Positions 1,097 to 30,166 of a DNA stretch of 32,000 nucleotides are shown in pieces. Under the pieces are notes generated by a model, which ran no database searches, had not been told where the DNA came from, and saw nothing but the letters and a program-made list of their open reading frames with translations. The DNA is from Erysipelotrichaceae bacterium (GTDB taxonomy: Bacteria > Bacillota_I > Bacilli_A > Erysipelotrichales > Erysipelotrichaceae). The position numbers were made by a program, and so were the translations under genes. The stretch lies in the NCBI GenBank assembly GCA_963676105.1, contig OY781039.1, positions 1,931,220 to 1,963,219 of the forward strand. The letters are read 5' to 3'. How positions within the stretch are numbered: position 1 is the stretch's first letter; each line of letters starts with the position of its first letter.

Positions 1097-1106
1097 GAGA
1101 TATAAC

Positions 1107-3074: not shown

Positions 3075-3086
3075 GAGGAACTTTAA

Positions 3087-3533: not shown

Positions 3534-3541
3534 GAAACGAT

Positions 3542-3850: not shown

Positions 3851-3861
3851 GAGGTAGACAC

Positions 3862-4458: not shown

Positions 4459-4468
4459 GGAGGGTCAT

Positions 4469-6217: not shown

Positions 6218-6229
6218 GGAGGCGTAAGC

Positions 6230-7669: not shown

Positions 7670-7672
7670 AAG

Positions 7673-8302: not shown

Positions 8303-8354
8303 AAAGTTGCATTTTTTTTTAGGACTATTTGAATTTAATGCGTTTATATATAGT

Positions 8355-8690
8355 ATGAAGGTCTATCAATTTGAAGAACTAGATACATTGGTACGGTTCC
8401 ACTTACGCTTTTATAAGAAGCAAAAAAGCAAAGAAGACTTCTATGCGAATAACATGGAGGTGTGTGAGGCACAAACGCATCGTCCGCTTGAGAAAGTTTA
8501 TGTTTTTTGTATTGAACAATCCCTATCAGAATTGAGTGAAGATGAGCGATTAATACTCACCAAAGAGAATCTCGAATCAACTAATAAAAACTGGTGGATG
8601 GAGTACTTTTCTAAGAGTACATATTATCGATTAAAGTATAAGGCTATGGACCGTTTTATTCATTGTTTACATTCAGAAAGCGTGGTATGA
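8355..8690 (+). CDS. hypothetical small protein with a C-terminal sigma-70 region-4-like helix-turn-helix
   Basis: The ORF track gives 8283-8690; I prefer the ATG at 8355 (MKVYQFEE...) because 8283 overlaps ntpD. The C-terminus ...LSEDERLILTKE...WWMEYFSKSTYYRLKYKAMDRF... resembles small sigma-r4/ArpU-like HTH proteins. No clear SD precedes either start. Confidence 0.4.
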   Translation: MKVYQFEELDTLVRFHLRFYKKQKSKEDFYANNMEVCEAQTHRPLEKVYVFCIEQSLSELSEDERLILTKENLESTNKNWWMEYFSKSTYYRLKYKAMDRFIHCLHSESVV

Positions 8691-8755: not shown

Positions 8756-10465
8756 ATGCTAAAAGGTATTGCTGCAAGTAGTGGCGTAGTCGTCGCGAAA
8801 GCTTACAAAATGGTTCAACCCGTTTTTGAAATCACAAAGAAGACTGCTAATGTTGAGGAAGAATTAGCTAAATTTGAAGCTGCTATTCTAAAGACTCGTG
8901 AAGACATTGAAAGAATTAAAGCGAAAGCTGTTGGAAAACTATCTGACGAAGAATTAGCGATTTTTGATGCTCACATTATGGTTACCATGGATCCTGAGTT
9001 TACAGGTCAAATGGAAGAAATGATTAAGAGTGATAGCGTTAATGCTGATTATGCTTGTCACGAAGTTTCAAGTATGTTCATCAATATGTTTGAAGGAATG
9101 GATGACCCATACTTTAAAGAACGTGCTGCTGATATTAAAGACGTTAGTTACCGTTTAACATGCCATATCTTAGGCTTAGAAATGGCTGACTTATCACTTA
9201 TCAATGAAAAAGTTATTATCGTTGCTCACGATTTAACTCCTTCTGATACAGCTCAGTTAAATAAAGAATTTACATTAGGTTTCGCTACTGCGATTGGTGG
9301 ACGTACATCTCACTCCGCAATTATGGCACGATCACTTGAAATTCCTGCAATCGTTGGTATTTCTGGTTTACTAGAACAAGTTAATCACGGTGATTTAATT
9401 GCTTTAGATGCGATTGATGGTGAGTTACACTTAAATCCTACTGAAGAACAAATCAAAGACTTTGAGAAAAAAGCTGAACGTTACGAAAAATTAAAGGAAA
9501 GCTTAAAAGTTCTTAAAGATGCTGAATCTATCACAACTGATGGACATCACGTTGAATTGGTTGCCAATATCGGTACACCAAATGATGTTGACGGTGTTCT
9601 AAATAATGGTGGTGAAGGTGTTGGTTTATACCGTACAGAATTCCTTTACATGGATGCTAAAGACTTCCCAACAGAGGAAGATCAATATACTGCTTATAAA
9701 ACTGTCCTTGAAAGAATGGGTAAAAAACCTGTTGTTGTTAGAACATTAGATATCGGTGGTGACAAAGAGTTAAGTTACTTAGACCTACCACATGAAATGA
9801 ATCCATTCTTAGGTTATCGTGCGATTCGTTTATGTTTAGATCGTCCAGAGCTTTTTAAAACTCAAATTCGTTCATTACTACGCGCATCAGTACATGGAAA
9901 CCTCTGCATCATGTTCCCAATGATCGCAACGCTTGATGAATTTAGAGCGGCTAAGAAATTTGTAAAAGATACTGAAGCTGAATTAAAAGCAGAAGGAATT
10001 GAAGTGGCTAAATATCAATTAGGTATTATGGTTGAAATTCCTGCAGCTGCAGTACTTGCTGATCAATTTGCGAAAGAAGTTGACTTCTTCTCAATTGGAA
10101 CAAACGACTTGATCCAATACTCAATGGCTGCTGATAGAATGAGTGAAAAAGTTTCTTATCTCTATCAACCATTCAACCCATCATTACTACGTTTAATCAA
10201 AATGACCATCGATGGTGCTCATAAAGAAGGTAAATGGTGTGGAATGTGTGGTGAAATGGCTGGTGAACCATATGCTGTACCTCTACTACTTGGTTTAGGT
10301 TTAGATGAGTTCTCCATGTCTGCAACATCAATCTTACAAGCTCGTAAAATTGTTCGTTCATTAAGCTATAAAGATATGCAAGATTTATCTGCTAAAGCAA
10401 TTAATCTTTCTACAATGGAAGATGTACTTGATTTAGTTAAAAAGAACGTTAAATTTGACGATTAA
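8756..10465 (+). CDS. ptsI: phosphoenolpyruvate-protein phosphotransferase (PTS enzyme I)
   Basis: 569 aa with the active-site His region [21 protein letters not shown] and C-terminal ...[12 protein letters not shown]... Confidence 0.97.
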
Positions 10466-10479
10466 TCTTTAATTATAAT

Positions 10480-10513
10480 GTCTCACTTTAATAACAAAGT
10501 GGGACTTTTTTTA
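10480..10513 (+). terminator. rho-independent terminator after ptsI
   Basis: The 10-bp stem gtctcacttt/aaagtgggac (one G-U pair) has a 6-nt loop and is followed by a T-run at 10506-10512. Confidence 0.8.
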
Positions 10514-10590
10514 TCTATAATAGACATGACTTAAATAACATATTTAGCCCATTAAAAAAAATTTTTTAATGAATTCGCTTACATTACTTT

Positions 10591-10610
10591 AATGTGATTT
10601 ATATCACATT
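10591..10610. promoter_or_regulatory. perfect inverted repeat TGTGA-N6-TCACA (Rex or Crp/Fnr-type operator candidate) upstream of pflB
   Basis: aaTGTGAtttataTCACAtt has 7-bp perfect arms. It is immediately followed by TATACAAT (10611-10618), a -10-like element, about 50 nt before the pflB start. Confidence 0.6.
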
Positions 10611-10659
10611 TATACAATGAAAAAGTATGTTAAATTTGTATTGGAAAAGAGGACTTGTT

Positions 10660-12885
10660 ATGAAAGATGCTTGGAAAAACTTTAAATCTGGAGCTTGGGA
10701 AAGTGAGATTAATGTTGAGGATTTTATTCAAACAAATTATACATACTATACAGGTGATGATTCATTTTTAGCGCCAATTACCGCAAAGACAAAAGCGGTT
10801 TGGGGACGTTGTGAAGAATTATTAGCTGAAGAGTTAAAACTAGGTGTTTTAGACATTGAAATGGATGCGATATCTGGTGTTAATAACTTCAAGCCTGGTT
10901 ATATATTAAGAGAATCTGAATCTATTGTTGGTTTACAAACAGATGCACCATTAAAGCGTATTATTAATCCTTATGGTGGTATTCGTTTGGCGGCTAAAAT
11001 TCTAAAAGTTTATGGTCGAGAAATGAAACCCGAATTTATGACATTCTTTGATGAATATGGAAAAACACATAATCAAGGTGTCTTTGATGCTTATACAGAT
11101 GATATGCGTAAAGCTCGTCATACAGGTTTATTAACGGGTTTACCAGATGCTTATGGACGTGGACGTATCATTGGTGATTATCGTCGTGTTGCCTTATATG
11201 GTATTGATGCCTTAATCGAAGATAAGAAACAAGATTTAAACTTCATCAAAGATATTAATGCTGAAAGCATTCAACTTCGTGAAGAAGTGAGTGATCAAAT
11301 CAAAGCATTAGGCGATATTAAAAAAATGGCCGCAACTTATGGCTTAGATATTTCTGAACCTGCCAAAACAGCTCAAGAAGCAGTTCAATGGTTATACTTT
11401 GCTTACTTAGCAGGTGTCAAAGAAAATAATGGTGCTGCAATGTCATTAGGACGTACATCAACTTTCTTAGATATCTATATTCAAAGAGATTTAGAAAATG
11501 GAAAGATTACTGAAGATCTTGCTCAAGAATACATAGACCAATTCATTATTAAATTACGTTTAGTACGTCATTTAAGATCACCTGAATATGATGAGTTATT
11601 TGCGGGAGATCCAACCTGGGTTACTGAATCTATTGGCGGTATGTCACGTAATAAAACACCTCTAATTACAAAAAATTCTTTTAGATACTTACACTCACTC
11701 ACAAACTTAGGGCCAGCACCTGAGCCTAATATGACAGTTTTATGGTCCGAAAGTTTACCTGAAAACTTTAAGAAATATGCCGCTAAAATGTCAATTGAGA
11801 CAGGTGCAATTCAGTATGAAAATGATGACTTAATGTCACCAATTTATAATAGTGATTATGCCATTGCATGTTGTGTATCTGCGATGGGTATTGGTAAGCA
11901 AATGCAATACTTTGGCGCAAGAACTAATATGGCGAAAGCGTTACTCTATTCGATTAATGGTGGATTAGATGAGGTCTATAACGAAAAAGTTGTAGATGGT
12001 ATCGAAATGATGAATGATGAAGTTTTAGACTATGACAAAGTCATGGCTTCATATACTCAAATTTTAGAAAAAGTTGCGAAACTTTATGTTGATACGATGA
12101 ATATCATTCACTATATGCATGACAAGTATGCGTATGAAAAATCTCAAATGGCTCTACATGATACATATGTTGAACGTATGATGGCATTTGGTGTTGCGGG
12201 CTTATCTGTCGTTGCGGACTCTTTATCAGCTATTAAATATGCTAAAGTAAAACCAATTCGTAATGAATTTGGAGTTGCGACTGATTTTGAAATTGAAGGA
12301 ACATTCCCTAAGTTTGGTAATGATGATGATCGTGTCGATGATATCGCGGTAGAAGTTGTCACGATGTTTTCCAACATGTTAAAGAAACATCCTTTAATTC
12401 GTAACGCAAAACATACGCTATCTATCTTAACCATTACGTCAAATGTGGTCTATGGTTTGAAAACAGGCTCAACACCAGATGGACGTAAAAAAGGTGAACC
12501 ATTTGCGCCTGGCGCAAACCCAATGCACGGACGTGATATTGATGGCGCTATCGCATCATTAAACTCTGTCGCAAAAATCCCTTATGAAGATATTTGCCAA
12601 GATGGTGTTTCAAATACATTCTCAATTATGCCTGAAGCTTTAGGTAAAACTAAAGGTGAACAAGTTGATAATACGGTTTCAATTTTAGATGGTTACTTTA
12701 AATCAAATGCACACCACTTAAATGTTAATGTCTACTCTCGTGAAGTCTTAATGAAAGCGATGGAACATCCTGAACTTTATCCGAATTTAACGATTCGTGT
12801 TTCAGGGTATGCGGTTCATTTCCACCGTCTTACAAAGGCTCAACAACTCGAAGTGCTTAATCGTACTTTTCATGAGTCTATCTAA
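10660..12885 (+). CDS. pflB: pyruvate formate-lyase (formate C-acetyltransferase)
   Basis: Contains the glycyl-radical motif RVSGYAVHF near the C-terminus and the active-site Cys-Cys pair (IACCVSAMG). I moved the start from the track's 10627 to the ATG at 10660 (MKDAWKNF...), which follows AAGAGGA. Confidence 0.96.
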
Positions 12886-13618
12886 TACAGCTTATATACA
12901 AAAAATTGAAAAGCTAGGAACCTTTGATGGACCGGGTATCCGAACAGTATTCTTCCTTTCAGGCTGTCCTTTAAGATGTCTTTATTGTCATAATCCAGAA
13001 ACTTGGAAAGCCAATCAAGGACAAACAATTTCAGTTGAAGAAGTTTTGAGGATTGCTAGACGAAACAAGAATTACTATGGGCTCAAGGGTGGTATTACTT
13101 TAAGTGGTGGTGAACCCTTAATGCAGGCAGACTTTGTATTACAATGTTTCAAAGCATTAAAGGCTGAAGGTTTCCATACTGTTTTAGATACCTCCGGGCA
13201 TAGTTCGAGTCCGTTAATTGATTTAATCTTAGATTATACAGATCTCGTTTTATATGATTTAAAAGCTGCAGACAAGGACATGTATCATTCGATTACTTTA
13301 GGTCAAAAAGATATTACTGATGCTTTTTTGAAAAAGACTCAAGACCATGACTGTAAATTATGGATACGACAGGTATTAGTACCAGGTATTAATGATAATG
13401 TTGTTAATCTAGAACAAAGCGCACAAGTCATTGCCAAGTTAAATAATGTCGAAAGAATCGAAGTCTTGCCTTATCATACTTTAGGCTTAGCTAAATATGA
13501 AAAGATGAATATTGAATATCCGTTAAAAGGATTAAAACCAATGGACATGATACAAGCAGAAGAATTTCAAACAAAACTTAATGTTCGCATCGCACAGTTA
13601 AAAAAAGCTCACCAGTAA
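12872..13618 (+). CDS. pflA: pyruvate formate-lyase activating enzyme (radical SAM)
   Basis: [30 protein letters not shown] contains the CxxxCxxC cluster. I chose the start at ATG 12872 ([10 protein letters not shown]...), which overlaps the pflB 3' end by 14 nt. The track's 12797 start would lie deep inside pflB. Confidence 0.9.
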
Positions 13619-19683: not shown

Positions 19684-20268
19684 TTAATATTCTTGATAAG
19701 AATCTTTTTCATAAATAAGTTTAGCTTTAGATATAAAATAGTTTGAGTCGTCATAATCTAGATTTAATGTTTTAAATTTTTGAATCATCTCATCAATTGT
19801 TTTAAATTCATAATCATGTCTAGGTGACGTATTTTCCATTTCTATCATAAGGTGTTCATTATTGACCCATTGGCTTATTAGACTGAATTCACCATTATCA
19901 TAAACGGTACACTCATCATAAACACGAATGAAAACTTTATAGTTTAATGTTTCAAAAGCTCTAATGACATACTCAGGATCATGGACTTCATAGTTTATAT
20001 CCATTTGGTCAAGGATATCACCATTGTTTGCATAGTCTTTTTGTTTATATACAATTTTGTAGTTGTCATTGTTTTTACGTAAAATAAGACATCTTTTCAA
20101 GACATTGTGGAATTTTAAGATTTGTGGATTTGTTGATTGGGGAATGAGATAGATATCATCTAAAACAAAATACGCAACTTGTTTGAAACCTTGTTTCTTT
20201 AAATCGTTATCAAGTTCTTCCATACTAGAATTTATTAATACAGTTATTTCATTTTTCATATTCAGCAT
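19684..20268 (-). CDS. CYTH-like (triphosphate tunnel / class IV cyclase fold) protein, tentative
   Basis: 194 aa. The secondary-structure-like pattern parallels CyaB/CYTH proteins (EITVLI...DDIYL...LILRKN...INYEVHD...ECTVYDNGEFSLISQWV...MIEMEN). The N-terminal ExExK signature reads E-I-T-V-L instead. No SD precedes either ATG (20268 or 20259). Confidence 0.4.
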   Translation of the reverse strand: MLNMKNEITVLINSSMEELDNDLKKQGFKQVAYFVLDDIYLIPQSTNPQILKFHNVLKRCLILRKNNDNYKIVYKQKDYANNGDILDQMDINYEVHDPEYVIRAFETLNYKVFIRVYDECTVYDNGEFSLISQWVNNEHLMIEMENTSPRHDYEFKTIDEMIQKFKTLNLDYDDSNYFISKAKLIYEKDSYQEY

Positions 20269-20275
20269 TTATAGT

Positions 20276-20312
20276 ATAAAACAAAAAGAATGAAACATAA
20301 GGTTCCATTCTT
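20276..20312 (-). terminator. rho-independent terminator directly after the GGDEF/HD-GYP gene
   Basis: On the minus strand: aagaatggaac-cttat-gtttcattctt (10 bp, one mismatch) followed by tttttgtttt. The hairpin starts at the stop codon. Confidence 0.7.
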
Positions 20313-22861
20313 TAAGCTCTTAATTCAACATCTACTGTCGCAGCACGGGTTGGTTCGATCATCACATCACCTTGATCAATTAAATTGATAAAGATTTGTG
20401 ATAATTCTGGATCAAATTGTCCGCCGGCATTTCGTCTGATTTCTTCAACCGCATATTCAACCGTATGATAAGTTTTATAGTGACGATCAGATGTAATCGC
20501 ATCAAAGGCATCAGCTAAGCAAATACATCTTGCGCCAAATGGAATGTTTTCACCTCTAAGTTGACGAGGATAACCACGACCATCATATCGTTCGTGATGT
20601 CCAATAACGGCAGGTATAACTTTATTAAAAGTAGGTAAATACTTAATAATGGTGACGGATAAATCTACATGACGTTTCATCACTTCAAATTCTTCATTGG
20701 TTAAACGAGTTGTCTTGGTTAAAATATGTTCTGGTATACCAATCTTACCAATGTCATGAAGAAGTGAAGCTTGTCGAATGATTTCAATATCACTCTCACT
20801 TGCGCCTGCCGCCTGAGCGATGGCAGTCGCGTATTTCGCAACCCGTTGAGAATGACCAAAGGTAATATGATCTTTCGCATCAATGGTTGCGGTTAAGGCA
20901 TAAATGGTTGCCCATTGGTTTTCGCTTAAATCAAACTCTGCGACGGGTGTATCTGCCACTTCGGCAGTATAGATGGTCGTACGGTTACGACCATTACGTT
21001 TTGAGTATATTAAGGCCGTATTGGCATTCTTTAATAAACTAACCGCATCTGCACAGGCACTTGGATACACACATAAACCTACTGACACCGTGACATAACG
21101 TGTACTTTCATTAATGTTTGAAACAGATAAGTCTTCAATTTGAGTTCTAATTTTTTCAGCTAAATCATAACTTTGTTTAGTATCAGAATTATTGAGTAGA
21201 ACACCAAAGATGTCACCTGCATATCTAAAGACTAAGGTCGATTCATGAACACTTCGTTTGATTCGATCTGCAATCTTTGTTAAGACAAAGTCGCCAGATA
21301 GATGACCATAGATATCGTTGTACACCGTTAATGAATCGATGCCAAATAAGATAAGGGATAAACTTATGGGTTTCGCATCCACATGTTTATTTAATGCTTC
21401 CATGAAATAGCGGTGATTATACGTTTGGGTTAATGAATCCGTAATCGCTTCTGTTTGTGTCTTTTCGAATAATAAGGCATTTGTTAAAGCCATCGCCGCA
21501 GTTGAACACATGAGTTCAATTGATTCAATATGATGGAAAGCTTCAACAGATCTGTGATCAGTGTGACAGATTAACATAAAACCAATTAAGTCATGATGAA
21601 CTTTTAAAGGTATCGCAATCTCAAATAATAGTTCGTTTAAATGGTCAAAATCTTCTTCCCACATGGATTTAAAGAGTGGGTGTTGATAAAGATCTTCCCC
21701 ATGTATAGGTTTATCATCATTTTCGAACCATTTCGCAAATGGATGATTTAAATTAAATTTGAGTTTTTTACGTTCAAGTTTCTTAGATGATGCATAACAT
21801 TCATACTCTTCTTGAACTGAATTTTTAAGATAAAGATAAATTTTTCCATGTTCTAGGATAGATTGAGAGATTTTGATCAATTCTTCACTGATTTCTTTCG
21901 CATTTAAATTATTTGCGACTGATTGGGTAAAGTTATGAATTTCTGTTTCTCTTCTCATTTCATCTTTATAGAAGAATTGATTAATGAGTTTATGAATTAA
22001 AGAAAAGATAGGTTGGAAAATTAAAATCCCAATAATAATCGCTAGCACAAAGACAATTGAATTATCAATGCCAGTATTGAGAGATTGAAAGAATGACCAA
22101 GCTTTATTTAAGACAAACGAGGTTGTGATAGAAAGTGCAACCAAGGCAACACTTAAAGTTAATGCTTTTGTGATGACTATTTTTAGTTCAATAACACGAT
22201 TTGCGTAGACTGCTTTCATCATCATTAATACAGCTATTGATCCCGCAAAGAAGTCAAATGGATATTTCCCAATGATTGGGACAAGATTTATTCCCATTCC
22301 GATAAAGATAATAAAGAGAGACACAACAATCTGTTTCAAACCTTTATTAATGGAGAGTGATTTCTTAATATGGTTATGAGCAATCAAGAAACAAGACATT
22401 AATTGTAAGAAAATTAAACCATAAGAAACATAAGCTCCCCAAGATAAGGTGTAGTTTAATTGAGTGTATGGGGCAATATCTAAAGCCATCATGTGGGCTT
22501 CTGATGTGACATGTCCTGTAAAGATAAGTCCAACCATAAAGATGGTGATTAGACCCCACATTGTGATTGGAATCCAACGTCTACGATCAATATAAACATT
22601 TAAGAATATATATGCTGCATATGGAAGGATCGCACTTCCCATAATCATGATTCGATTATAAAATAGGGTACCAGGATAAACATCTAACTTCATTAATAAT
22701 GAAGAAGCACTCCATATAGCCATTGAAAATACGACTAAGACAAAGGATTTAATCATCGCATCTTTCTTAGATAAAACTAAAATCGCAAGTAAAGTTAAAC
22801 TCAATAAAAAGGCAGTGGTTGGAAGTCCCCAATAGAATAGGGTTAGGCCATAATCACTCAT
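20312..22861 (-). CDS. multi-TM sensor with GAF-like region, degenerate GGDEF domain and HD-GYP phosphodiesterase domain
   Basis: 849 aa with about 8 N-terminal TM helices (residues 1-290). The GGDEF-domain core is ...DSLTQTYNHRYF...GDFVL...FRYAGDIFGVLL (signature AGDIF). The HD-GYP core is ...FGHSQRV...LLHDIGKIGIP...GHHERYDGRGYP... GGGAGGA SD upstream; ATGA overlap with the GH3 gene. Confidence 0.9.
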   Translation of the reverse strand: MSDYGLTLFYWGLPTTAFLLSLTLLAILVLSKKDAMIKSFVLVVFSMAIWSASSLLMKLDVYPGTLFYNRIMIMGSAILPYAAYIFLNVYIDRRRWIPITMWGLITIFMVGLIFTGHVTSEAHMMALDIAPYTQLNYTLSWGAYVSYGLIFLQLMSCFLIAHNHIKKSLSINKGLKQIVVSLFIIFIGMGINLVPIIGKYPFDFFAGSIAVLMMMKAVYANRVIELKIVITKALTLSVALVALSITTSFVLNKAWSFFQSLNTGIDNSIVFVLAIIIGILIFQPIFSLIHKLINQFFYKDEMRRETEIHNFTQSVANNLNAKEISEELIKISQSILEHGKIYLYLKNSVQEEYECYASSKKLERKKLKFNLNHPFAKWFENDDKPIHGEDLYQHPLFKSMWEEDFDHLNELLFEIAIPLKVHHDLIGFMLICHTDHRSVEAFHHIESIELMCSTAAMALTNALLFEKTQTEAITDSLTQTYNHRYFMEALNKHVDAKPISLSLILFGIDSLTVYNDIYGHLSGDFVLTKIADRIKRSVHESTLVFRYAGDIFGVLLNNSDTKQSYDLAEKIRTQIEDLSVSNINESTRYVTVSVGLCVYPSACADAVSLLKNANTALIYSKRNGRNRTTIYTAEVADTPVAEFDLSENQWATIYALTATIDAKDHITFGHSQRVAKYATAIAQAAGASESDIEIIRQASLLHDIGKIGIPEHILTKTTRLTNEEFEVMKRHVDLSVTIIKYLPTFNKVIPAVIGHHERYDGRGYPRQLRGENIPFGARCICLADAFDAITSDRHYKTYHTVEYAVEEIRRNAGGQFDPELSQIFINLIDQGDVMIEPTRAATVDVELRA

Positions 22862-24489
22862 GATACAGTCCTCCCAAACGCACGTTTTAATATTTCTACC
22901 ACATCAAAGTGGTTTGGATTGACTTTCGCTAGTTTATGATGAATTGTTTTTTGATAAGCATCAATGGTCCCAAAAGGTAAGATTGTGATTGTTAGTGGAT
23001 CAATCCCTAACATCTTTTTAAGATTTTTAAAGTCTTGATCTACATAGGCAAAGTTTAATTCTAATTGAGCTTGAATAAGATCCACACGGTCCCAACCTAA
23101 ATCATCTTGTTTATGATTGAGTTCAATCGCTAAGTTAAGATAAGGTCTTTGTTGGTCATCATATGATTTACGTGCAAACCAGTTAGAGATTGGTAATCGA
23201 GATAACTTAATAACTTCGGTTAAGGTTTCTTCAGTAATACGGGTAAATCCAGCTAAATCTACGACAGGATCAACACGGTCAATATATCGCAGATGTGGTA
23301 AAGCAATGCCATCTTTCATGCGTTCTAGTACTTCGCATTTAAAGACATCACCTACACGATAGCGTGCAAATGCCCCGCCTTTAAAGGTAGTGATAACGAG
23401 CTCATAAGATTCATCTTCTTTAAGTTCATCCATTAAATATGTTTTTGGTTGATAAGATGGATCTTCTAAGTTCTTATAAAATTCATGCATCGGAATGAAT
23501 TCATAGAAACATATATGGGGTAGGAAGATTAGACCGTCTTTTTCCCATGATTCCACCCCAATGCACGTTGGCTCGGTTCCACCAAATACTTCAAGTGGAA
23601 CAACTCCCCAATAATCTGCAATCTTCTTTTTAAAGTGCAGAGTATCAGTTCCTATACAAACAAAACCTTTTAAATCAAAGACATCCTTTGGATAAATGGC
23701 TTCTTTCGTAAATGTACTTTTTATTTTTGCGATCGCAAATTTACTGAGTTGTGATAATTTAAAGTCTAATAAATTAATGCTTCCAGATGAACCAGAAGCG
23801 AATTGTTCAGACATGCGAACAATGACAGAACTTAAACCATAAAAAAGATCTAAGCCTTGTTGAACACCCATCTTAAAGCCTTCTTTATTTCTTTGAGAAA
23901 AGCCCATTTTTAAGCCTTCATCAATTGGAGGAAAATAGTTAACACTAAAATCATCACGAATGACATCTGGTAATAAACCTGTTAGATAAGGTAAAGGTGC
24001 CATTCCGTTTAAGAAATTCATACCTGGTTTTAAATCAAAGTGACCTTTTTTGCGTGATGATGCTAACATAATGCACGTAAATGCGGAGTCACGATAATTT
24101 CTAATCATAGCTTCTGTGTAAGGAGCTAGTTTTACAGGTGCTTTACCACCAACCCAGGTTGTTTCAATCCAAATGGCTGCAGGGGCTGGTAACATGTTTT
24201 CTTGTTTACTTAAAAGAATATCTGCGTAATCCTCATAATGGGTTAGAGGAACTTTTTCTCTGAATTCCTGCATCGTTTTAATGGTTTGACCATTAAATAA
24301 TTTTTGCCCAAGTTCACAGTTATTAAAGAGTTGAATTTGTTCTAAAAGGAGTTGTTCTTGAATAGCCATGAACTCAGGTACGGATAAATCTAAAAACCCA
24401 CAGTAACGATTCCATAGTTCTGTGTAATTCTTACGTTTTAAATGTTCATCAAAACTTAAGTGAGATGTGCTTAAGACGGATTCTGACAT
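22858..24489 (-). CDS. GH3-family (acyl-acid amido synthetase-like, ANL superfamily) protein
   Basis: 543 aa with FREKVPLTHYEDYADIL, VFGGTEPT, and YELVITTFKGGAFARYRVGDVF...LPHLRYIDR, the GH3 pattern. AAGGAG lies 8 nt upstream. The start lies inside the 3' end of the upstream gene (19-nt overlap). Confidence 0.8.
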   Translation of the reverse strand: MSESVLSTSHLSFDEHLKRKNYTELWNRYCGFLDLSVPEFMAIQEQLLLEQIQLFNNCELGQKLFNGQTIKTMQEFREKVPLTHYEDYADILLSKQENMLPAPAAIWIETTWVGGKAPVKLAPYTEAMIRNYRDSAFTCIMLASSRKKGHFDLKPGMNFLNGMAPLPYLTGLLPDVIRDDFSVNYFPPIDEGLKMGFSQRNKEGFKMGVQQGLDLFYGLSSVIVRMSEQFASGSSGSINLLDFKLSQLSKFAIAKIKSTFTKEAIYPKDVFDLKGFVCIGTDTLHFKKKIADYWGVVPLEVFGGTEPTCIGVESWEKDGLIFLPHICFYEFIPMHEFYKNLEDPSYQPKTYLMDELKEDESYELVITTFKGGAFARYRVGDVFKCEVLERMKDGIALPHLRYIDRVDPVVDLAGFTRITEETLTEVIKLSRLPISNWFARKSYDDQQRPYLNLAIELNHKQDDLGWDRVDLIQAQLELNFAYVDQDFKNLKKMLGIDPLTITILPFGTIDAYQKTIHHKLAKVNPNHFDVVEILKRAFGRTVS

Positions 24490-25022
24490 GTGCTTTGCTC
24501 CTTAAGTTTAAATAGAAGAAATGGGACTCGTTTTTGATAATCACTATAACCATCAATTGAGTATGGGAAAATGAGCTGATCTTGAATTAAGATATGGATG
24601 AAGTCAAAGGCTGTCCATAAAATGGCTGCCCATAAAACCAGTGTGCTACCTGTACCTAAAGAAAATCCAATCGCCATTAATATAAATCCCCAAAGACCTG
24701 GATGACGGCATAATCCATAGATACCTGTATCAACTACCGATACTTTATCTAACTTTGTGTATGTATCTGATGCAGGTAGTGCAAAAAATAATGCATAGAA
24801 TTGTTCAATTGCACCAATAATGACTAAAGTAAAAAACCAAGGATTTGAGTTAAAGGCAATAGAATGATCTTGTGAAATTAGAACCATCACAAGTGCGTAA
24901 ATTAATAAAATAATGGATAGTGGAAATAAGAGGTTAAATGATCTATGCCACTTATAAATTTTATTCAAGTCAAAAAGAGTTAATAAAACAAATGATGTAC
25001 AGCCAAGATAAATCCAGCTCAT
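24471..25022 (-). CDS. ICMT/PEMT-like integral-membrane methyltransferase family protein
   Basis: 183 aa, 4-5 TM. VVDTGIYGLCRHPGLWGFIL...IHILIQDQLIFPYSIDGYSDYQKRVPFLL matches the (V/T)xGxYxxxRHPxYxG...EE..L...FG..Y..Y core of isoprenylcysteine carboxyl / phospholipid methyltransferases. AGGGAAGGG SD upstream. Confidence 0.7.
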   Translation of the reverse strand: MSWIYLGCTSFVLLTLFDLNKIYKWHRSFNLLFPLSIILLIYALVMVLISQDHSIAFNSNPWFFTLVIIGAIEQFYALFFALPASDTYTKLDKVSVVDTGIYGLCRHPGLWGFILMAIGFSLGTGSTLVLWAAILWTAFDFIHILIQDQLIFPYSIDGYSDYQKRVPFLLFKLKEQSTCQNPS

Positions 25023-25150
25023 CTTACAACCCTTCCCTAAGGTCTAATAAAAAACCGACCCAAAAATGTGGCCGGTTACGCTACGAGCTCATACAGGGGA
25101 TAAGCGTCCAAATGTACCCTGTAATCAAGGCTTCCAGAAAATGACTAGTA
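25023..25150 (-). promoter_or_regulatory. structured, locally GC-enriched 5' leader of the methyltransferase-GH3-HD-GYP operon (riboswitch/attenuator candidate)
   Basis: Lies between a consensus promoter and the first ATG. It contains a 7-bp helix (25092-25098 with 25117-25123). A 5-nt loop segment (25103-25107) is complementary to 25078-25082. A terminator hairpin lies just before the SD. Confidence 0.5.
25045..25077 (-). terminator. leader-internal rho-independent terminator (attenuator)
   Basis: On the minus strand: aaccggcc-acattttt-gggtcggtt (8 bp including one G-U) followed by ttttttatt. It lies about 25 nt upstream of the operon's first start codon. Confidence 0.6.
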
Positions 25151-25155
25151 TTGCC

Positions 25156-25184
25156 ATTATAGAATCAAAAAAACGCCTATTCAA
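25156..25184 (-). promoter_or_regulatory. sigma-70 promoter (TTGAAT-17 nt-TATAAT)
   Basis: On the minus strand, TTGAAT (25184-25179), an exact 17-nt spacer, then TATAAT (25161-25156). Confidence 0.7.
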
Positions 25185-25371: not shown

Positions 25372-26235
25372 ATGAAACTATGTACGTTTATAGAAGATAG
25401 TCAAAAACAATTAGGGATTAAAACGGAATCAGGAATCATTCATGTCGCAAAATCTTGTGCACAAAATGACATGGAATGCATAAATGATCTAGAAACTGTG
25501 ATAGCCCAAGGTGATAAAGCACTTATTACTTTAGCTGAGCTATTAAATAAGGACTGCGTTATCTTAAGTGAAGATGATATTGAATTTGCACCAGTTGTAC
25601 AAAATCCAGAGAAAATATTATGTGTGGGTTTAAATTATCAAAGTCATCAAGAAGAAACTAAAATGGCTAAGCAAGATTATCCAACGATCTTTTCAAAATT
25701 TAATAATGCTTTAGCTGCGCATAACGAAGATATTCAAACATTGGATGTCGCAAGTCAATATGACTACGAAGTTGAGCTAGTTATTGTCATGGGACAAGAA
25801 GCGAAGAATGTTTCTGAAGACAATGCGTTAGACTATGTCTTTGGCTATACCATCGGTAATGATGTCAGCGCAAGAGATCTTCAAACCCGTACCACTCAAT
25901 GGTTGATGGGTAAAACATTTGATGGATTTGCGCCAGTTGGTCCATATCTTGTGACTCGAGATTCAATTGATCCAGCAAACCTAAAAATAAGCACAAAAGT
26001 AAATGGTGAAATTCGTCAAGATGGTCATACATCAGATTTGATTTTTGATTGTAAATACATCGTCAGTTATCTATCAAAATACATGACTTTAAAACCAGGT
26101 GATATTATCTTCACAGGAACACCAAGTGGTGTCATCTTAGGTTATCCTGAAGATAAGAAAGTTTGGTTAAAAGCAGGGGATGTTATGGAAGTAAGTGTTG
26201 AAGGTATCGGAACTTTAATTAATAAACTAGTATGA
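25372..26235 (+). CDS. fumarylacetoacetate hydrolase (FAH)-family protein
   Basis: 287 aa with KILCVGLNYQSH, YDYEVELVIVMG, GYTIGNDVSARDLQ, GKTFDGFAPVGP and PGDIIFTGTPSGV. AGTGAGGA SD upstream. Confidence 0.9.
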   Translation: MKLCTFIEDSQKQLGIKTESGIIHVAKSCAQNDMECINDLETVIAQGDKALITLAELLNKDCVILSEDDIEFAPVVQNPEKILCVGLNYQSHQEETKMAKQDYPTIFSKFNNALAAHNEDIQTLDVASQYDYEVELVIVMGQEAKNVSEDNALDYVFGYTIGNDVSARDLQTRTTQWLMGKTFDGFAPVGPYLVTRDSIDPANLKISTKVNGEIRQDGHTSDLIFDCKYIVSYLSKYMTLKPGDIIFTGTPSGVILGYPEDKKVWLKAGDVMEVSVEGIGTLINKLV

Positions 26236-26564
26236 TTTTTAAAGATGAAATTAAAAAACCATATTATGCTGTTATATTTAGTTCAGTGCGGACAAATGGT
26301 GATAACGAATATTCAAACATGTCTAGAATCATAGGAGAGAAAGTCTCAAGATTACCAGGGTTTTTAGGCGTAGAAAGCATGCGCAATGAAAATGGTTTTG
26401 GGATTACCATTTCTTATTGGGACAACCTTGATAGTATACAAACCTGGAAAATGGATGAGGAACATAGAAAGGCAAAGTTTTTAGGTAAGAAAATCTGGTA
26501 TAAAGAATATAAAATTAGAATATGTAAAGTTGAAGAAGATAATTATTTTGTAAACGAATCATAA
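26232..26564 (+). CDS. antibiotic-biosynthesis-monooxygenase (ABM)-like small protein
   Basis: 110 aa. YYAVIFSS...LPGFLGVES...ITISYWDNLDSIQTWKMDEEHRKA fits the ABM ferredoxin-like fold pattern. ATGA overlap with the FAH gene. Confidence 0.7.
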   Translation: MIFKDEIKKPYYAVIFSSVRTNGDNEYSNMSRIIGEKVSRLPGFLGVESMRNENGFGITISYWDNLDSIQTWKMDEEHRKAKFLGKKIWYKEYKIRICKVEEDNYFVNES

Positions 26565-26589: not shown

Positions 26590-27633
26590 TTATTTAAATG
26601 TTTCTGGATCAAAAGCGTGCTTCATAGCCACATCCTTTGTGACTTGATTATCATCAACCAATTTCTTTATGCTCTCGTCCATTGTAATCATACCCGCATC
26701 TTTGGATACACGTATCGTCGCATTAAGCTGATGTGTTTTGCCTTCACGAATTTGATTGCGAATAGCTGTATTGTTAACCATAACTTCAAAAGCTGGAAGG
26801 ATTCGTTGATCAACAGTTGGAATAAGTTGTTGAGATACAACCGCTTGAAGTACCATTGCAAGTTGGATACGTACTTGGTGTTGTTGCTCAGCAGGGAAAA
26901 CATCGACAATTCGATCAATGGTGTTTGATGCGCCCAAAGTATGCAGCGTTGAAAATACAAGGTGCCCTGTTTCAGCAGCGGTAAGTGCTAATGAAATAGT
27001 TTCTAGATCACGCATTTCACCTACAAATAATACATCAGGACTTTGTCTTAATGCTGAACGTAAAGCAATTGCAGTACTTTCACAATCGGTACCAATCTCG
27101 CGCTGTGTAACAACCGATTGATTATGTCTAAATAGGAATTCAATTGGATCATCAATGGTAATGATATGACCTCTACGATTATTGTTGATTGCACTTAGAA
27201 TCATAGCCATTGTGGTTGATTTACCACAACCAGCAGGTCCACTTACAATGACTAAACCTTTTGTAAGATTAGAGAAACGCATGACGTTTTCTGGAACGTG
27301 CATATCACTTGGTTGAGGAATATCAAATCGTACAATTCTAAGAACTGCTGCTAAACTTGATCGTTGAGTATATACGTTAGCTCTAAATCTAGCAACTTTT
27401 GGGATTGAAAATGAAAAATCATCATCACCCGTATCATTAACTTTATCCATTGAACGATTTGCGACTTCGTAGATATGTTCAATAAGCTCACGCGTATCAT
27501 TAGGTGTTAATCGATCACCATCCATTTGTTGCATTTCGTTTTTAATTTTTAGCGCAACACTTGTACCGGCAACGATAAATAAATCTGATGCGCCAAGTGA
27601 CATGGCTTTTTCAATGAGTTGATCTAATTTCAT
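26590..27633 (-). CDS. pilT: PilT-family type IV pilus retraction-type ATPase
   Basis: 347 aa with Walker A GPAGCGKST, DDPIEF, Walker B DVLFVGEMRD, His box AAETGHLVFSTLHT and the PilT-specific AIRNQIREGK (26737-26766). GGAGG SD upstream; TAATG overlap with the upstream gene. Confidence 0.93.
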   Translation of the reverse strand: MKLDQLIEKAMSLGASDLFIVAGTSVALKIKNEMQQMDGDRLTPNDTRELIEHIYEVANRSMDKVNDTGDDDFSFSIPKVARFRANVYTQRSSLAAVLRIVRFDIPQPSDMHVPENVMRFSNLTKGLVIVSGPAGCGKSTTMAMILSAINNNRRGHIITIDDPIEFLFRHNQSVVTQREIGTDCESTAIALRSALRQSPDVLFVGEMRDLETISLALTAAETGHLVFSTLHTLGASNTIDRIVDVFPAEQQHQVRIQLAMVLQAVVSQQLIPTVDQRILPAFEVMVNNTAIRNQIREGKTHQLNATIRVSKDAGMITMDESIKKLVDDNQVTKDVAMKHAFDPETFK

Positions 27634-28064
27634 TATTGACCTCCATAGACTGGATTACCATCTTGTGTGTAATCTTGATTGTTTAATATACTTAGTCTCT
27701 TTGATTCTAAAATTAATGTTTTGTTTGTCACATCCATTGATAATAATACTTCAATGTTTAAATGATTATTTGTTAATTCAATGATAATGGTTTCTGTATC
27801 TTTATCGTAAGACACCATCTCTAAATTGTCTATGACCACAAATAATTCATCACTTTGATAATATTCATTTACTTCTTGAATAATTTGTTCAGCTTCAGTT
27901 TCTATGTTGTATGTATCAGATATAAAATTCATGCTTTTAAGAATACTATTACGTGTTTGTCGTACATCTACAAGTAAGACTGAAACGACTGAATAAACCA
28001 AAATTAAAATGAGAATAGACAATAGGGTTGGTAAGCCAAATGGATTAAAACCACGTTTTTTCAT
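27633..28064 (-). CDS. small N-terminally anchored protein, ComGG-like minor pseudopilin candidate
   Basis: I prefer ATG 28064 (GAGGT 6 nt upstream, ATGA overlap with the previous stop) over 28085. MKKRGFNPFGLPTLLSILILILV resembles the ComGG N-terminus (..RGF.. with no Glu5). Confidence 0.45.
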   Translation of the reverse strand: MKKRGFNPFGLPTLLSILILILVYSVVSVLLVDVRQTRNSILKSMNFISDTYNIETEAEQIIQEVNEYYQSDELFVVIDNLEMVSYDKDTETIIIELTNNHLNIEVLLSMDVTNKTLILESKRLSILNNQDYTQDGNPVYGGQ

Positions 28065-28414
28065 CGTGATACCTCGACTTCCCAAGAAGTAATCAGATTG
28101 TCATCACTATCTTTTAAACTTAGAGTTATCCAATCAAAATCATTCACACTATCTTTTTTTAAATAAAGTGTATACGATGGATTCACATTAGTTATTTGTC
28201 CATTTTCATCAAATCTTAGTGCAGACAAAGATGTTTCACTGTTAAGTGTTTCTGATAAACTTATCATATGATTTTGAATGTTTGATAATGCCATGTTCTC
28301 TTGATGTGTTCTATTGGCTGAAAGTAATAGGAAAAAGGCTACAAACAATCCAAGACTTAGAAAAATAACATTTAAGCTGATTTCCAGCATGAAGTTCTTT
28401 TGTGTCTTATTCAT
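28061..28414 (-). CDS. small N-terminally anchored protein, ComGD/GE-like minor pseudopilin candidate
   Basis: I prefer ATG 28414 (AGGTGA 5 nt upstream) over GTG 28429. MNKTQKNFMLEISLNVIFLSLGLFV resembles a degenerate KGFTLLESL prepilin motif (Asn for Gly-1, Glu at +4). Confidence 0.4.
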   Translation of the reverse strand: MNKTQKNFMLEISLNVIFLSLGLFVAFFLLLSANRTHQENMALSNIQNHMISLSETLNSETSLSALRFDENGQITNVNPSYTLYLKKDSVNDFDWITLSLKDSDDNLITSWEVEVSR

Positions 28415-28850
28415 AAACTTCACCTGCACTTAATTTATATAAAAGATTTATCGTTTCATTGGCTTCATTTTGATAATGAATATTTAATAAATTATTATCT
28501 AATGACAATTTCAAATCGTAAGCATAGGCAATCGTTTCTCCACCATTTTCAAAGCGGGTAGGGTTAGTTGACACTTGTTCTTTTAGCTGATGATCTTCTT
28601 CATAAATTAAAATGTAATAAGATTCTAAATTAAAGACAAGCATAGACTCTTCAATGCTAATTGAATCTATAAAATCATTTTGTTTAATACGGTTATTAAA
28701 ATAAAGACGAATACTACGATCATTTAGTTCAACTTGTGTTTCAGTTTGGATTTTTTGACTAAGATTTGCACCATAAGAAATAAGCAAACTAGAAGCAATT
28801 ACTAAGATCAAAATCATTAAAAGAGAAAGGGCAGCACTATTTTTTTTCAT
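28407..28850 (-). CDS. small N-terminally anchored protein, ComGF-like candidate
   Basis: 147 aa. MKKNSAALSLLMILILVIASSLL anchor followed by a beta-rich domain whose layout recalls ComGF. AGGAGGGG SD upstream; TAATG overlap. Confidence 0.4.
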   Translation of the reverse strand: MKKNSAALSLLMILILVIASSLLISYGANLSQKIQTETQVELNDRSIRLYFNNRIKQNDFIDSISIEESMLVFNLESYYILIYEEDHQLKEQVSTNPTRFENGGETIAYAYDLKLSLDNNLLNIHYQNEANETINLLYKLSAGEVYE

Positions 28851-29140
28851 TAGTCATCCCCTCCTATTCGATAGATATGGATGGTAGGTCTGAAATTTGA
28901 TGCGAAAGCTTTATAAGTAACGACAAAGGAATCATCAACAACAATTCCATAGTTCTCAATTAAATAATCTAATTGTGCAGGATAAAAACCTTCTTGTGCA
29001 TAACAAAGTGTCAGCGCATTTTGTATCGCTGTTTCTAAGCTTTTTTGATTCAATGCCTTTTGTTCATCTTCCATTCTCATAATTAGAAAGAAACTTAGAA
29101 CTAAGGCAAGGATGAAGACAAGAACGGTTGTTTTTTTCAT
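28850..29140 (-). CDS. GspG/ComGC-like pseudopilin candidate lacking a class III (prepilin) signal
   Basis: 96 aa. MKKTTVLVFILALVLSFFLI anchor, a long helix, then YAQEGFYPAQLDYL (28961-29002), matching the Y...G.YP..L..L motif of GspG/ComGC-type pseudopilins. An in-frame TAA just upstream excludes a longer N-terminus. Confidence 0.5.
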   Translation of the reverse strand: MKKTTVLVFILALVLSFFLIMRMEDEQKALNQKSLETAIQNALTLCYAQEGFYPAQLDYLIENYGIVVDDSFVVTYKAFASNFRPTIHIYRIGGDD

Positions 29141-29143
29141 ACT

Positions 29144-30166
29144 TTATCCTAAGGTAGACATAACGTTTAATAATGGTAAGATCATTGAGAATACAATCGC
29201 AAAGACCATAGCCGTTAAGAGTGTAATTAACCATGGTTCAATTTTATTTAAACTCGTATTGAGTTGATTTTGGGCTTTTTGATTCAAAGAAACTGCTAAG
29301 TCCTCTAAAGCGTTTTCTAATTGACCTGCTTTAGCGGCGATATTTATAGTACTTAAATCAAGGGCTTCATATAAGGTGTTATTCAATAAGAGTTCATATA
29401 AACCTTCGGCAGGATCTAATTTTGATTTTGCGAGTTTAAGTTTTTCATCAAAGTTCTTACTACTATCATTTGCTTTAACTAAATCTAAGGCAGTGCGATT
29501 ATCAATCCCACCAGAGAGTGCCATATGAGCCATTGATGTATAATAGGCAACTTGTGTTGTTTCGTAGGCTTTTGGAAATAAACGCAAAATACGTGTTTCC
29601 CAGGAAGGATGATTTGATGGATCATTTTGATGATTGATTTCACCTAAACCAAACCAGATAACTAAAACCATATAAACAGCCATTAATGCGACACTAAATC
29701 CTTTAAGTATATATAAGAAGGCGCTTAAACTTGCGCTTTGACTGATGCCCAATTGGCTAAACAAATTTTGAAATAGCGGTAATATTGACCAAGCCATTAA
29801 AACTAAGATGACGCCAAAGATAGCCAATAAAATAATCGGTAAACTCAAACTCTCTTTTAAGAACTGTTTAAGTTCTGATTGACGATTGAAATGCTTAGTC
29901 ATTTGTTTAAAGAGCTTTTCTTCTTGACCAACTTTTTCTGCGATTTCTAATGAGTCAATAAAATACTGAGGAAAAGCTCCATCTTGTTTAAAGACATAGG
30001 ATAATTGAGGATTTTCATAGAAAGATACTTGCCAGGATTTAATGTCATAGAGTTCTAGATTTTCAAGTAGACTTAAACCTCTTTCAACATCTGTACCAGA
30101 TGCATAGAGATAAGATAATTGATGACATAAACTAGATAGTTCTTGTGCGGTATATTGTTTTTTCAT
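29144..30166 (-). CDS. PilC/ComGB/GspF-family platform protein
   Basis: 340 aa with two repeated cytoplasmic T2SS-F-like helical domains, each followed by TM segments. C-terminal ...MILPLLNVMSTLG. AAGGAGA SD upstream. Confidence 0.85.
   Translation of the reverse strand: MKKQYTAQELSSLCHQLSYLYASGTDVERGLSLLENLELYDIKSWQVSFYENPQLSYVFKQDGAFPQYFIDSLEIAEKVGQEEKLFKQMTKHFNRQSELKQFLKESLSLPIILLAIFGVILVLMAWSILPLFQNLFSQLGISQSASLSAFLYILKGFSVALMAVYMVLVIWFGLGEINHQNDPSNHPSWETRILRLFPKAYETTQVAYYTSMAHMALSGGIDNRTALDLVKANDSSKNFDEKLKLAKSKLDPAEGLYELLLNNTLYEALDLSTINIAAKAGQLENALEDLAVSLNQKAQNQLNTSLNKIEPWLITLLTAMVFAIVFSMILPLLNVMSTLG

Follow-up and report, generated by a model that had tools for sequence, protein, structure and literature searches.

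The stretch of DNA analysed here, in what follows the window, comprises 32,000 nt (32 kb) of contig OY781039.1 from an Erysipelotrichaceae bacterium. On its minus strand lie three overlapping genes, which code for a putative membrane methyltransferase (gene 1), a GH3-like adenylating enzyme (gene 2) and a receptor-like protein that combines a seven-transmembrane (7TM) sensor and a GAF domain with GGDEF and HD-GYP domains (gene 3). We found that this trio recurs as a unit in distant bacterial families and that, in this genome, it stands behind a leader which we take, with near certainty, to be a class-II riboswitch for cyclic di-GMP (c-di-GMP), a second messenger. The domains and the riboswitch class are known, while their conserved combination is apparently undescribed. 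An earlier note on this DNA, made from the sequence alone, had read the locus as an operon that makes a signal and senses it.

The operon and its conservation

The features of the locus are collected in Table 1. Inspection of the sequence gave an overlap of 19 nt between genes 1 and 2 (24471-24489) and the overlap ATGA between genes 2 and 3 (22858-22861), and a Shine-Dalgarno-like motif is present before every start codon (GGGAAGGG, AAGGAG and GGGAGG for genes 1, 2 and 3, respectively). The reading frames and both overlaps are exactly those given in the earlier note, and the common promoter and the end terminator named there were also found again. Consensus scans alone are weak evidence for such sites, because terminator-like sites are no commoner in the region than in shuffled sequence and promoter-like sites are rarer; the -10 box of the promoter is conserved in orthologous leaders. 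Tight or overlapping gene junctions recur in approximately 80 orthologous loci, and it is nearly certain that the three genes are translationally coupled in one operon.

Table 1. Features of the operon and its leader, in transcriptional order (window positions).
Feature	Position	Strand	Basis
Sigma-70-type promoter, TTGAAT-17 nt-TATAAT	25156..25184	minus	consensus match 10/12; -10 box kept in orthologous leaders
Putative class-II c-di-GMP riboswitch aptamer (P1, P2, P3, pseudoknot)	25061..25144	minus	full-length RF01786 match
Leader intrinsic terminator, AACCGGCCA / UGGGUCGGU + U-run	25049..25077	minus	forms in minimum-free-energy fold
Gene 1 (183 aa), putative ~5-helix membrane enzyme, ICMT/PEMT superfamily	24471..25022	minus	open reading frame (ORF) call; Pfam, profile, model
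Gene 2 (543 aa), soluble GH3-like ANL-superfamily adenylating enzyme	22858..24489	minus	ORF call; Pfam, motifs, model
Gene 3 (849 aa), whole reading frame	20312..22861	minus	ORF call
Gene 3 residues 1-295, multi-TM sensor (HisKA_7TM + two further hydrophobic helices)	21977..22861	minus	Pfam E = 2.3e-8
Gene 3 residues 301-465, GAF domain	21467..21961	minus	orthologs + profile
Gene 3 residues 472-627, GGDEF domain, degenerate site, without RxxD I-site	20981..21448	minus	Pfam 114 bits
Gene 3 residues 660-820, HD-GYP domain, intact HD + HHERYDGRGYP	20402..20884	minus	Pfam HD_5 125 bits
Operon terminator, AT-rich 12-bp stem + T-run	20275..20313	minus	begins at gene 3 stop codon; weak, 3 G-C pairs

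A large protein database contains more than 1,600 relatives of the GH3-like protein. In a set with one genome per species its gene gave 517 matching stretches, of which the best 80 were fetched with their flanks. According to the record titles, the closest of these loci belong to the Erysipelotrichaceae (94% identity), and loci at approximately 50% identity come from Desulfotomaculaceae/Pelotomaculum, Peptococcaceae, Syntrophomonadaceae, Oscillospiraceae/Ruminococcaceae and Anoxynatronum. With the window proteins as tblastn queries, the order and strand of the trio were identical everywhere. The 7TM-GGDEF-HD-GYP gene directly follows the GH3-like gene in all 69 loci with adequate downstream sequence, and a PEMT-like gene precedes it in 68 of the 70 loci with adequate upstream sequence; counting any methyltransferase, the number rises to 69 of 70. 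The earlier note had declared its own claim lost should the three genes never be co-localised in other genomes, and these counts speak for the contrary. The genes on either side of the trio (CYTH-like, M32 peptidase, FAA hydrolase, PilT) recur in the nearest relatives only and are thus not part of the unit. That distant families have co-inherited the trio with its gene order unchanged is, in our view, nearly certain.

Some loci depart from this arrangement (labels such as L045 denote single loci). In ten of them a class-I S-adenosylmethionine (SAM) methyltransferase of 213-230 aa (Methyltransf_11, 84-91 bits; L045 6036-6728, L066 6324-6965 and eight others) is inserted between genes 1 and 2, as seen in several Syntrophomonadaceae and Pelotomaculum loci. 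That some lineages have such an additional methyltransferase would agree with a small molecule that is methylated. A ThiF/E1-like gene is present in four loci. Variant cassettes of Syntrophomonas (L052 220-2492, L064 716-1528, L077 and L080) carry genes for a ThiF/E1-like adenylating enzyme (117 bits) and a class-I SAM methyltransferase upstream of the GH3-like gene, where they replace or join the PEMT-like gene; in one Syntrophomonas locus gene 1 has given way to genes for a class-I methyltransferase, a ThiF-like protein and a HisKA_7TM protein that stands alone. The stand-alone sensor domain of L052 (HisKA_7TM, 191 bits) is reminiscent of RpfH in the Rpf cluster. One metagenome-assembled genome (MAG) of the Syntrophomonadaceae, JAXDBN01, contains three separate GH3-like/receptor pairs (L059, L063, L064), showing that the cassette can undergo paralogous expansion. 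A Bacillota-type GH3-like/receptor pair with approximately 49% identity lies on a 3.5-kb contig that was binned as Fermentimonas (L057, JAQUIZ010000216.1). Fermentimonas is a genus of the Bacteroidota; most probably this short contig was binned wrongly, the alternative being that the pair was transferred. Finally, in several MAG loci (L028, L033, L034, L062, L069, L036, L047) the receptor reading frame ends early (235-646 aa) or the GH3-like or PEMT-like frames are broken, which reflects either assembly frameshifts or decaying copies.

The leader and its riboswitch

The earlier note had seen that a leader lies between the promoter and gene 1, but its identity as a c-di-GMP-II riboswitch with a terminator of its own was overlooked. 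An Rfam scan of the window at the gathering threshold returned no match; the aptamer surfaced only under an E-value threshold, as the sole RNA family match in the 32 kb. It aligns to RF01786 across the whole 84-position model with 48.2 bits (E = 1.3e-9 when searched locally, 8.3e-8 when the whole window is scanned), the Rfam gathering score being 53.5 bits. Orthologous leaders were taken from contigs of the closest relatives, whose GH3-like proteins are 79-94% identical, and from one metagenome contig. All of these contigs have the same element at the same position, and seven orthologous leaders match RF01786 full length with 47.1-54.6 bits, only L082 (54.6) lying above the gathering score and the others reaching 47.1-52.5. 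A metagenome scan for the aptamer core gave one additional copy (L087). Additionally, a covariance model made from six leaders recovered three leaders outside its training set with 58-75 bits.

The structural alignment of these leaders has 94.9% of its cells paired, versus 30-46% when the pairing partners are slid. P3 shows compensatory double changes in four pairs, and the covariation of 0.190, compared to 0.076 in shuffles, was reached in none of 500 shuffles. P1 and P2 are invariant within the clade, and so is the loop and junction core among the orthologous leaders. The pseudoknot between the P3 loop (ACGC) and the 3'-tail (GCGU) pairs in 7/7 sequences; relative to the Rfam consensus GCAC/GUGC, in which we assigned the partners by reading the sequence and not from curated annotation, all four pairs are preserved via two double changes.

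These data also bear on the idea that RF01786 matched by chance, or matched the remains of a decayed element, in a leader that has no c-di-GMP function. The window score below the gathering score and the several mismatches in P1 would suit such a chance match or relic. This idea would leave unexplained the whole-window E-value, the full-length match of seven orthologous leaders, one of them above threshold, the invariant core together with the compensatory changes in P3, and a pseudoknot that survives two double changes. Moreover, the element sits between promoter and gene 1, overlaps a terminator and stands upstream of a predicted c-di-GMP phosphodiesterase. We give the relic idea the slimmest of chances and assign the leader, as nearly certain on these comparisons, to the class-II c-di-GMP riboswitches.

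The aptamer lies between the promoter and the ATG of gene 1 (25022), and the 5' arm of the leader terminator falls within it: AACCGGCCA, at 25077-25069 (leader nt 74-82), coincides with the aptamer's conserved 3' end. When it pairs with UGGGUCGGU, a hairpin of -13.8 kcal/mol results, which is followed by six U; the hairpins of L001, L082 and L085 have -10.8 to -13.4 kcal/mol. The unconstrained fold of the leader, dominated by the terminator hairpin, has -35.5 kcal/mol versus -17.7 kcal/mol with the aptamer helices enforced, a figure that excludes the energy of the pseudoknot and of the ligand. Because the 3' end of the aptamer doubles as the terminator 5' arm, the two structures are mutually exclusive, so ligand binding should block termination. 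The predicted polarity is hence ON, which we hold to be likely from the structure. Indeed, the class-II c-di-GMP riboswitches of C. difficile are transcriptional ON switches, and surface and adhesion functions are the usual targets of the class (PMC11477304), which was first noted adjoining c-di-GMP turnover genes (PMC12564702). The leader is an ordinary, if slightly divergent, representative of this class. With the Rfam family RF01786 and Cdi2 of C. difficile it shares the full-length match, the P1-P2-P3 architecture with pseudoknot, the site in the 5'-untranslated region and the terminator-based platform predicted to be ON. It differs in its ACGC/GCGU pseudoknot, its short P1, scores that straddle the curated threshold and a downstream operon that also contains two biosynthetic enzymes.

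The riboswitch is not a general property of the trio. Our covariance model, run over 1.06 Mb of loci, gave no credible aptamer in the other 78 loci (~1 Mb). A strict regular expression likewise picked it up in the window's clade only, and Rfam did not find it in eight distant loci. In other clades the -10 box is only approximately 30-40 nt away from the start codon, so that these leaders cannot hold an aptamer. Since the leaders outside the clade leave no space for it, the riboswitch appears to be a recent, lineage-specific addition that is confined to the window's Erysipelotrichaceae clade. An organism devoid of any c-di-GMP synthase or effector would, according to the earlier note, have spoken against its hypothesis; here the operon should possess an effector of its own, the riboswitch.

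The encoded proteins

Hydropathy analysis of gene 3 gave 8-9 segments. The multi-TM sensor and GAF-like region of the earlier note hold up, the first by its HisKA_7TM match (Table 1) and the second by a GAF_2 match in 16/16 orthologs. A profile of the GAF domain matched the corresponding domain of the GAF-HD-GYP protein 4mcw with E = 2.3e-9. In an exhaustive HMMER search the 7TM+GAF module, aligned end to end, was also found to head histidine kinases, hybrid kinases and GGDEF-only proteins. Because of this it behaves as a sensory input module, and as judged from these alignments a reusable one. A large-database search with the TM-rich sensor half gave two fragments only.

The output half of gene 3 ends in an HD-GYP domain, as had been recognised before, and its motifs LLHD[IV]GK and HHERxDGxGYP are present in 68/68 full-length orthologs. 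The site of the GGDEF domain reads AGDIF, with HEST at the position of the RxxD I-site. The degenerate GGDEF site of the earlier note is thus real in the window, but it is lineage-specific: in a motif census of the 68 orthologs the signature is degenerate in the Erysipelotrichaceae, and GGEEF is kept in 24, all of them from clostridial branches outside this family. The closest solved structures of the HD-GYP domain are V-cGAP3 (5z7c), which is specific for cyclic GMP-AMP (cGAMP), and PmGH of Persephonella marina (4mcw), which is a c-di-GMP enzyme. For the GAF half as well as the HD-GYP half, PmGH is the best relative of solved structure; unlike gene 3 it is soluble and has neither a 7TM nor a GGDEF domain. 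Because the GGDEF site is degenerate while the HD-GYP motifs are invariant, the gene 3 protein in this genome is most likely a dedicated phosphodiesterase, which would hydrolyse only.

For gene 2, Pfam gave GH3 N (PF03321, 30.9 bits) and GH3_M (PF23571, 54.4 bits), both above the cut-off of 23.6, in agreement with the GH3 adenylating enzyme proposed earlier, and the same scan gave no match to the AMP-binding or PaaK families. The three nucleotide-binding motifs of GH3 enzymes are present in recognisable form (TTWVGGKAPVK, FGGTE and YRVGD), and they align with those of AtGH3.15; the key residues of the pattern TTWxGGxxPxK, FGGTE, YRxGD are invariant in 23 homologs. Hydropathy found no TM segment. 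The only NCBIfam match is OlsH, a GH3-like enzyme which makes N-acyl ornithine from free fatty acid and ATP (PMC12493201); the characterisation of OlsH makes the earlier statement that bacterial GH3 homologs are essentially uncharacterised outdated. Gene 2 failed the OlsH equivalog test with 18.8 bits versus a 620-bit cut-off. With the plant GH3s JAR1, GH3.5, GH3.6 and GH3.15 it has in common the two Pfam domains (GH3 N and central), the three motifs and, in its model, the overall two-domain fold. It differs from them by an identity of only ~15%, its shorter length and a C-terminal GH3 domain that Pfam does not detect.

The structure model of gene 2 (predicted local distance difference test, pLDDT, 84) matched plant GH3s in Foldseek with query-normalised TM-scores (TMq) of 0.57-0.65, and PaaK1/2 and BT_0428 with TMq 0.55-0.58, a target-normalised TM-score (TMt) of 0.71 and E ~1e-18. 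Because these matches are about equal, the fold says only that gene 2 is an ANL adenylating enzyme. One could consequently regard it as a coenzyme A (CoA) ligase of the PaaK/F390-synthetase type, which would feed thioester metabolism and be merely regulated by, or co-regulated with, the receptor; the comparable Foldseek results for BT_0428 and PaaK1/2 are what speaks for this. The sequence profiles alone favour GH3, however, with both GH3 domains above threshold, no AMP-binding or PaaK match and a GH3 enzyme as the sole NCBIfam match. Furthermore, 543 aa fits the size of a GH3 rather than that of a ~430-aa PaaK, the query-normalised TM-scores lean to GH3 (0.62-0.65 vs 0.58), and no genes that would use the thioester in a later step are conserved nearby. 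A CoA ligase thus seems very unlikely to us. As identity of gene 2, the PaaK type is disfavoured by the profiles and not by the fold, so that the PaaK/F390-type enzyme which the earlier note had named as fatal to its claim is countered by Pfam and NCBIfam, whereas the fold search fails to separate the two.

Gene 1 was described earlier as similar to membrane methyltransferases of the ICMT/PEMT type, and Pfam bears this out with PEMT at 30.3 bits (cut-off 25). ICMT, with 17.7 bits, stays under its 24-bit cut-off and NnrU is likewise below threshold; among 18 relatives, 15 match PEMT and 11 match ICMT. The family profile aligns with the cofactor-binding half of the archaeal Ma-ICMT (4a2n, E = 8e-4), where GIYGLCRHP of gene 1 meets GIYKNIRHP (motif GxYxxxRHP). 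The structure model (pLDDT 82.6) has five long helices and gave weak Foldseek matches only, with TM-scores of 0.34-0.52: SRD5A2 (E = 0.04), PbSRD5A (0.07), Ma-ICMT (0.19) and ICMT (0.4). Steroid 5-alpha-reductases and ICMTs are members of one membrane-enzyme superfamily. A function of the steroid-reductase type, suggested by the top Foldseek matches, is disfavoured by the PEMT/ICMT profiles and the RHP motif. Compared to Ma-ICMT, Ste14 and PEMT, gene 1 is likewise a small multi-helix membrane protein with GxYxxxRHP and a C-terminal cofactor-binding helix block. It differs in having QD for the EE of ICMT, in its own family signatures YALFFALP and CRHP, and in weak structure matches that include NADPH-dependent steroid reductases; the assignment is at superfamily level. 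Gene 1 is most likely a SAM-dependent methyltransferase for a lipophilic substrate.

A further alternative is that the adenylating enzyme and the methyltransferase together modify a protein carboxyl, be it on the receptor itself, on a lipoprotein or on a peptide. ICMTs methylate the C-terminal carboxylates of proteins, the gene 1 profile does align with Ma-ICMT, and variant loci add a ThiF/E1-like enzyme of a kind that typically adenylates protein or peptide C-termini. The cassette, however, has neither prenylation machinery nor an obvious gene for a peptide precursor, and the GH3 enzymes that have been characterised all use small acids as substrates (PMC12493201). We therefore consider protein modification to be highly improbable.

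Proposed function, surroundings and known systems

Taken together, the assignments suggest the following chain. The GH3-like enzyme would adenylate a lipophilic carboxylic acid and join it to an amino acid; the simplest candidate for the acid is a free fatty acid, which is what OlsH uses. On the cytoplasmic side of the membrane, the gene 1 enzyme would then methylate the product. The methyl group could go to the newly introduced free carboxylate, as with ICMT, or to an amine of the head group, as with PEMT/OlsG. The methylated, single-chain and membrane-resident product would be read by the 7TM/GAF input of gene 3, and the ligand would set the rate at which the HD-GYP domain hydrolyses c-di-GMP. 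In this genome, c-di-GMP bound to the leader would block the terminator (ON), so that a high c-di-GMP level would induce the enzymes and its own phosphodiesterase in a ligand-gated negative feedback.

We give this entire chain, from enzymes that make the ligand of the receptor through the hydrolysis output to the riboswitch feedback, a probability of roughly 40%. That genes 1 and 2 make the receptor's ligand is by itself a tentative proposal. The hypothesis of the earlier note, that a signal is made and sensed here, is plausible from the gene context. It gains from the synteny of the trio, but it had not foreseen that c-di-GMP, through the riboswitch, should also be an input of the operon. In its most specific form the idea would be that the cassette is a self-contained signalling system of anaerobic Bacillota. 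The product of the GH3-type ligase and the ICMT-like methyltransferase would be either the methyl ester of an N-acyl amino acid or a lipoamino acid methylated on nitrogen, and it would serve as an autocrine or quorum signal for the cognate 7TM-GAF receptor, which would convert it directly into c-di-GMP hydrolysis. We think that this form is doubtful; if true, no bacterial signal synthase of the GH3 family would have preceded it.

Several points weigh against the proposed chain. The link from the enzymes to the receptor is one of gene context, and the ligand of the receptor could equally be external. Gene 2 is far from OlsH, as the failed equivalog test tells, and very distant from plant GH3s (E = 6e-5, central domain only), and in the fold search its model was about as close to CoA ligases of the PaaK type as to GH3s. 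Gene 1 can be placed at the superfamily level only, its best Foldseek matches are steroid reductases with weak E-values, and QD is invariant in its family where ICMT has EE. As for the leader, the aptamer of the window scores 5 bits below the gathering score, P1 is weak, the terminators are degraded in 2/7 orthologous leaders, and the ON polarity rests on structural inference.

A different view of the same enzymes is that they make and methylate an amino-lipid as a structural component of the membrane, while the receptor monitors the state of the membrane or an unrelated cue. The riboswitch would then turn on a lipid modification of the sessile state, with the co-transcribed phosphodiesterase damping the signal. 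This remodelling of the membrane has a precedent in the OlsH-OlsG operon (PMC12493201) and agrees with the Pfam match of gene 1 in the PEMT family. It also agrees with the c-di-GMP control that the riboswitch puts on the enzymes, surface and adhesion being usual functions under class-II riboswitches (PMC11477304). Yet no O-acyltransferase of the OlsI/OlsA kind, as needed for a two-chain lipid, was found in the cassette, neither among the operon genes of the window nor among the called genes of close relatives, and this absence favours a single-chain, signal-like product over a bulk lipid with two chains. In addition, co-inheritance of the receptor in 69/69 loci, together with its translational coupling, is a tighter bond than one would expect of an unrelated regulator, and the riboswitch is missing from most of the family. 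We hence judge a purely structural lipid to be unlikely, although it deserves serious attention.

Alternatively, the receptor could sense a carboxylic acid from the environment or the host (fatty, aromatic or bile-type), and the enzymes would inactivate this very compound by conjugating and methylating it, much as auxin or jasmonate is inactivated by plant GH3s through conjugation. The closest folds of gene 2 are structures of plant GH3s, which conjugate hormone acids, with jasmonoyl-isoleucine (JA-Ile) or indole-3-acetic acid (IAA) analogues, and by their record titles the hosts are anaerobes of habitats rich in fatty acids or aromatics (syntrophs, digesters, gut). Against such a detoxifying role, no transporter or catabolic genes are conserved beside the cassette, and a membrane-embedded methyltransferase suits an endogenous membrane substrate at least equally well. 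Inactivation of an external acid is thus quite unlikely in our opinion.

To our knowledge, c-di-GMP receptors are abundant while their ligands are almost never known. With likely ligand-making enzymes inside the receptor's operon in many species, the question of the 7TM-GAF ligand becomes directly testable, and cultured carriers of the cassette include Pelotomaculum propionicicum, Anoxynatronum and Yanshouia hominis. The answer would carry over to the histidine kinases with the same sensor module. In this genome the riboswitch offers a handle, because c-di-GMP should turn the operon on, and it would provide a clean example of a second messenger that induces its own degradation.

The operon is followed, directly after its terminator, by a CYTH-like gene (194 aa, 19684-20268, minus strand; class-IV adenylate cyclase/CyaB match 24 bits vs 58-bit cut-off), which is present in the window, L001 and L081. 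As a fourth operon member this gene was rejected, since it lies beyond the terminator and is absent from the close relatives L082-L086; its presence beside the cassette is thus variable. On the other side, divergent genes of the FAA hydrolase and ABM monooxygenase families (25372-26564, plus strand) share a 350-nt intergenic region with the riboswitch promoter; only the clade that has the riboswitch (L001, L081, L082) keeps them beside the cassette. A type IV pilus-like cluster with PilT-type ATPase, T2SSF platform protein, DUF4860 and small pilin-like ORFs follows at 26590-30166 (minus strand), upstream of the operon at a distance of 1.5 kb. In C. difficile, type IV pili are controlled by a class-II c-di-GMP riboswitch (PMC11477304); in the Rfam scan of the window no riboswitch was found at E <= 0.1 for the present cluster. 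The far end of the window contains an apparent V-type ATPase operon (56-8690, plus strand; subunits AC39, I and A from three scanned ORFs, others by size only), followed by phosphotransferase system (PTS) enzyme I and by pyruvate formate-lyase with its activase (8756-13618, plus strand). This region is ordinary housekeeping context of an anaerobic Erysipelotrichaceae genome with ~34% GC.

Among known systems, the closest biochemical precedent is the OlsH-OlsG-OlsI operon of Singulisphaera acidiphila, in which OlsH is encoded together with the lipid N-methyltransferase OlsG (PMC12493201, PMC12971839). Both operons would combine a gene for a GH3-like, ATP-dependent acyl-acid amido synthetase with one for a lipid-directed SAM methyltransferase, and the substrate of the Ols pathway is a free fatty acid that is joined to an amino acid. 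The window differs in that gene 2 is not an OlsH equivalog and that an O-acyltransferase of the OlsI type (alpha/beta-hydrolase) is missing, and its c-di-GMP receptor gene has no Ols counterpart. Published surveys of OlsH homologs name Bacteroidota, Pseudomonadota, Planctomycetota and related groups, and the Bacillota, to which the host of the window belongs, are not among them. The cassette would extend bacterial GH3 chemistry, so far one planctomycete lipid pathway, to Gram-positive anaerobes. A literature search within one library, for GH3-like genes linked to HD-GYP or GGDEF genes in Bacillota, found none; it returned only Xanthomonas papers, in which 'GH3', by their titles and abstracts, apparently has another meaning.

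In its logic, though with no orthologous component, the proposed circuit comes closest to the diffusible signal factor (DSF)/Rpf system of Xanthomonas with RpfB, RpfF, RpfC and RpfG (PMC3749722). There, too, clustered enzymes that include an ANL-family acyl ligase go together with a fatty-acid-derived signal, a multi-TM sensor and a readout through HD-GYP hydrolysis of c-di-GMP. The chemistry of the synthase is different, the window having a GH3 enzyme and a methyltransferase in place of a crotonase. Moreover, the window unites sensor and HD-GYP domain in one polypeptide, with no phosphorelay between them.

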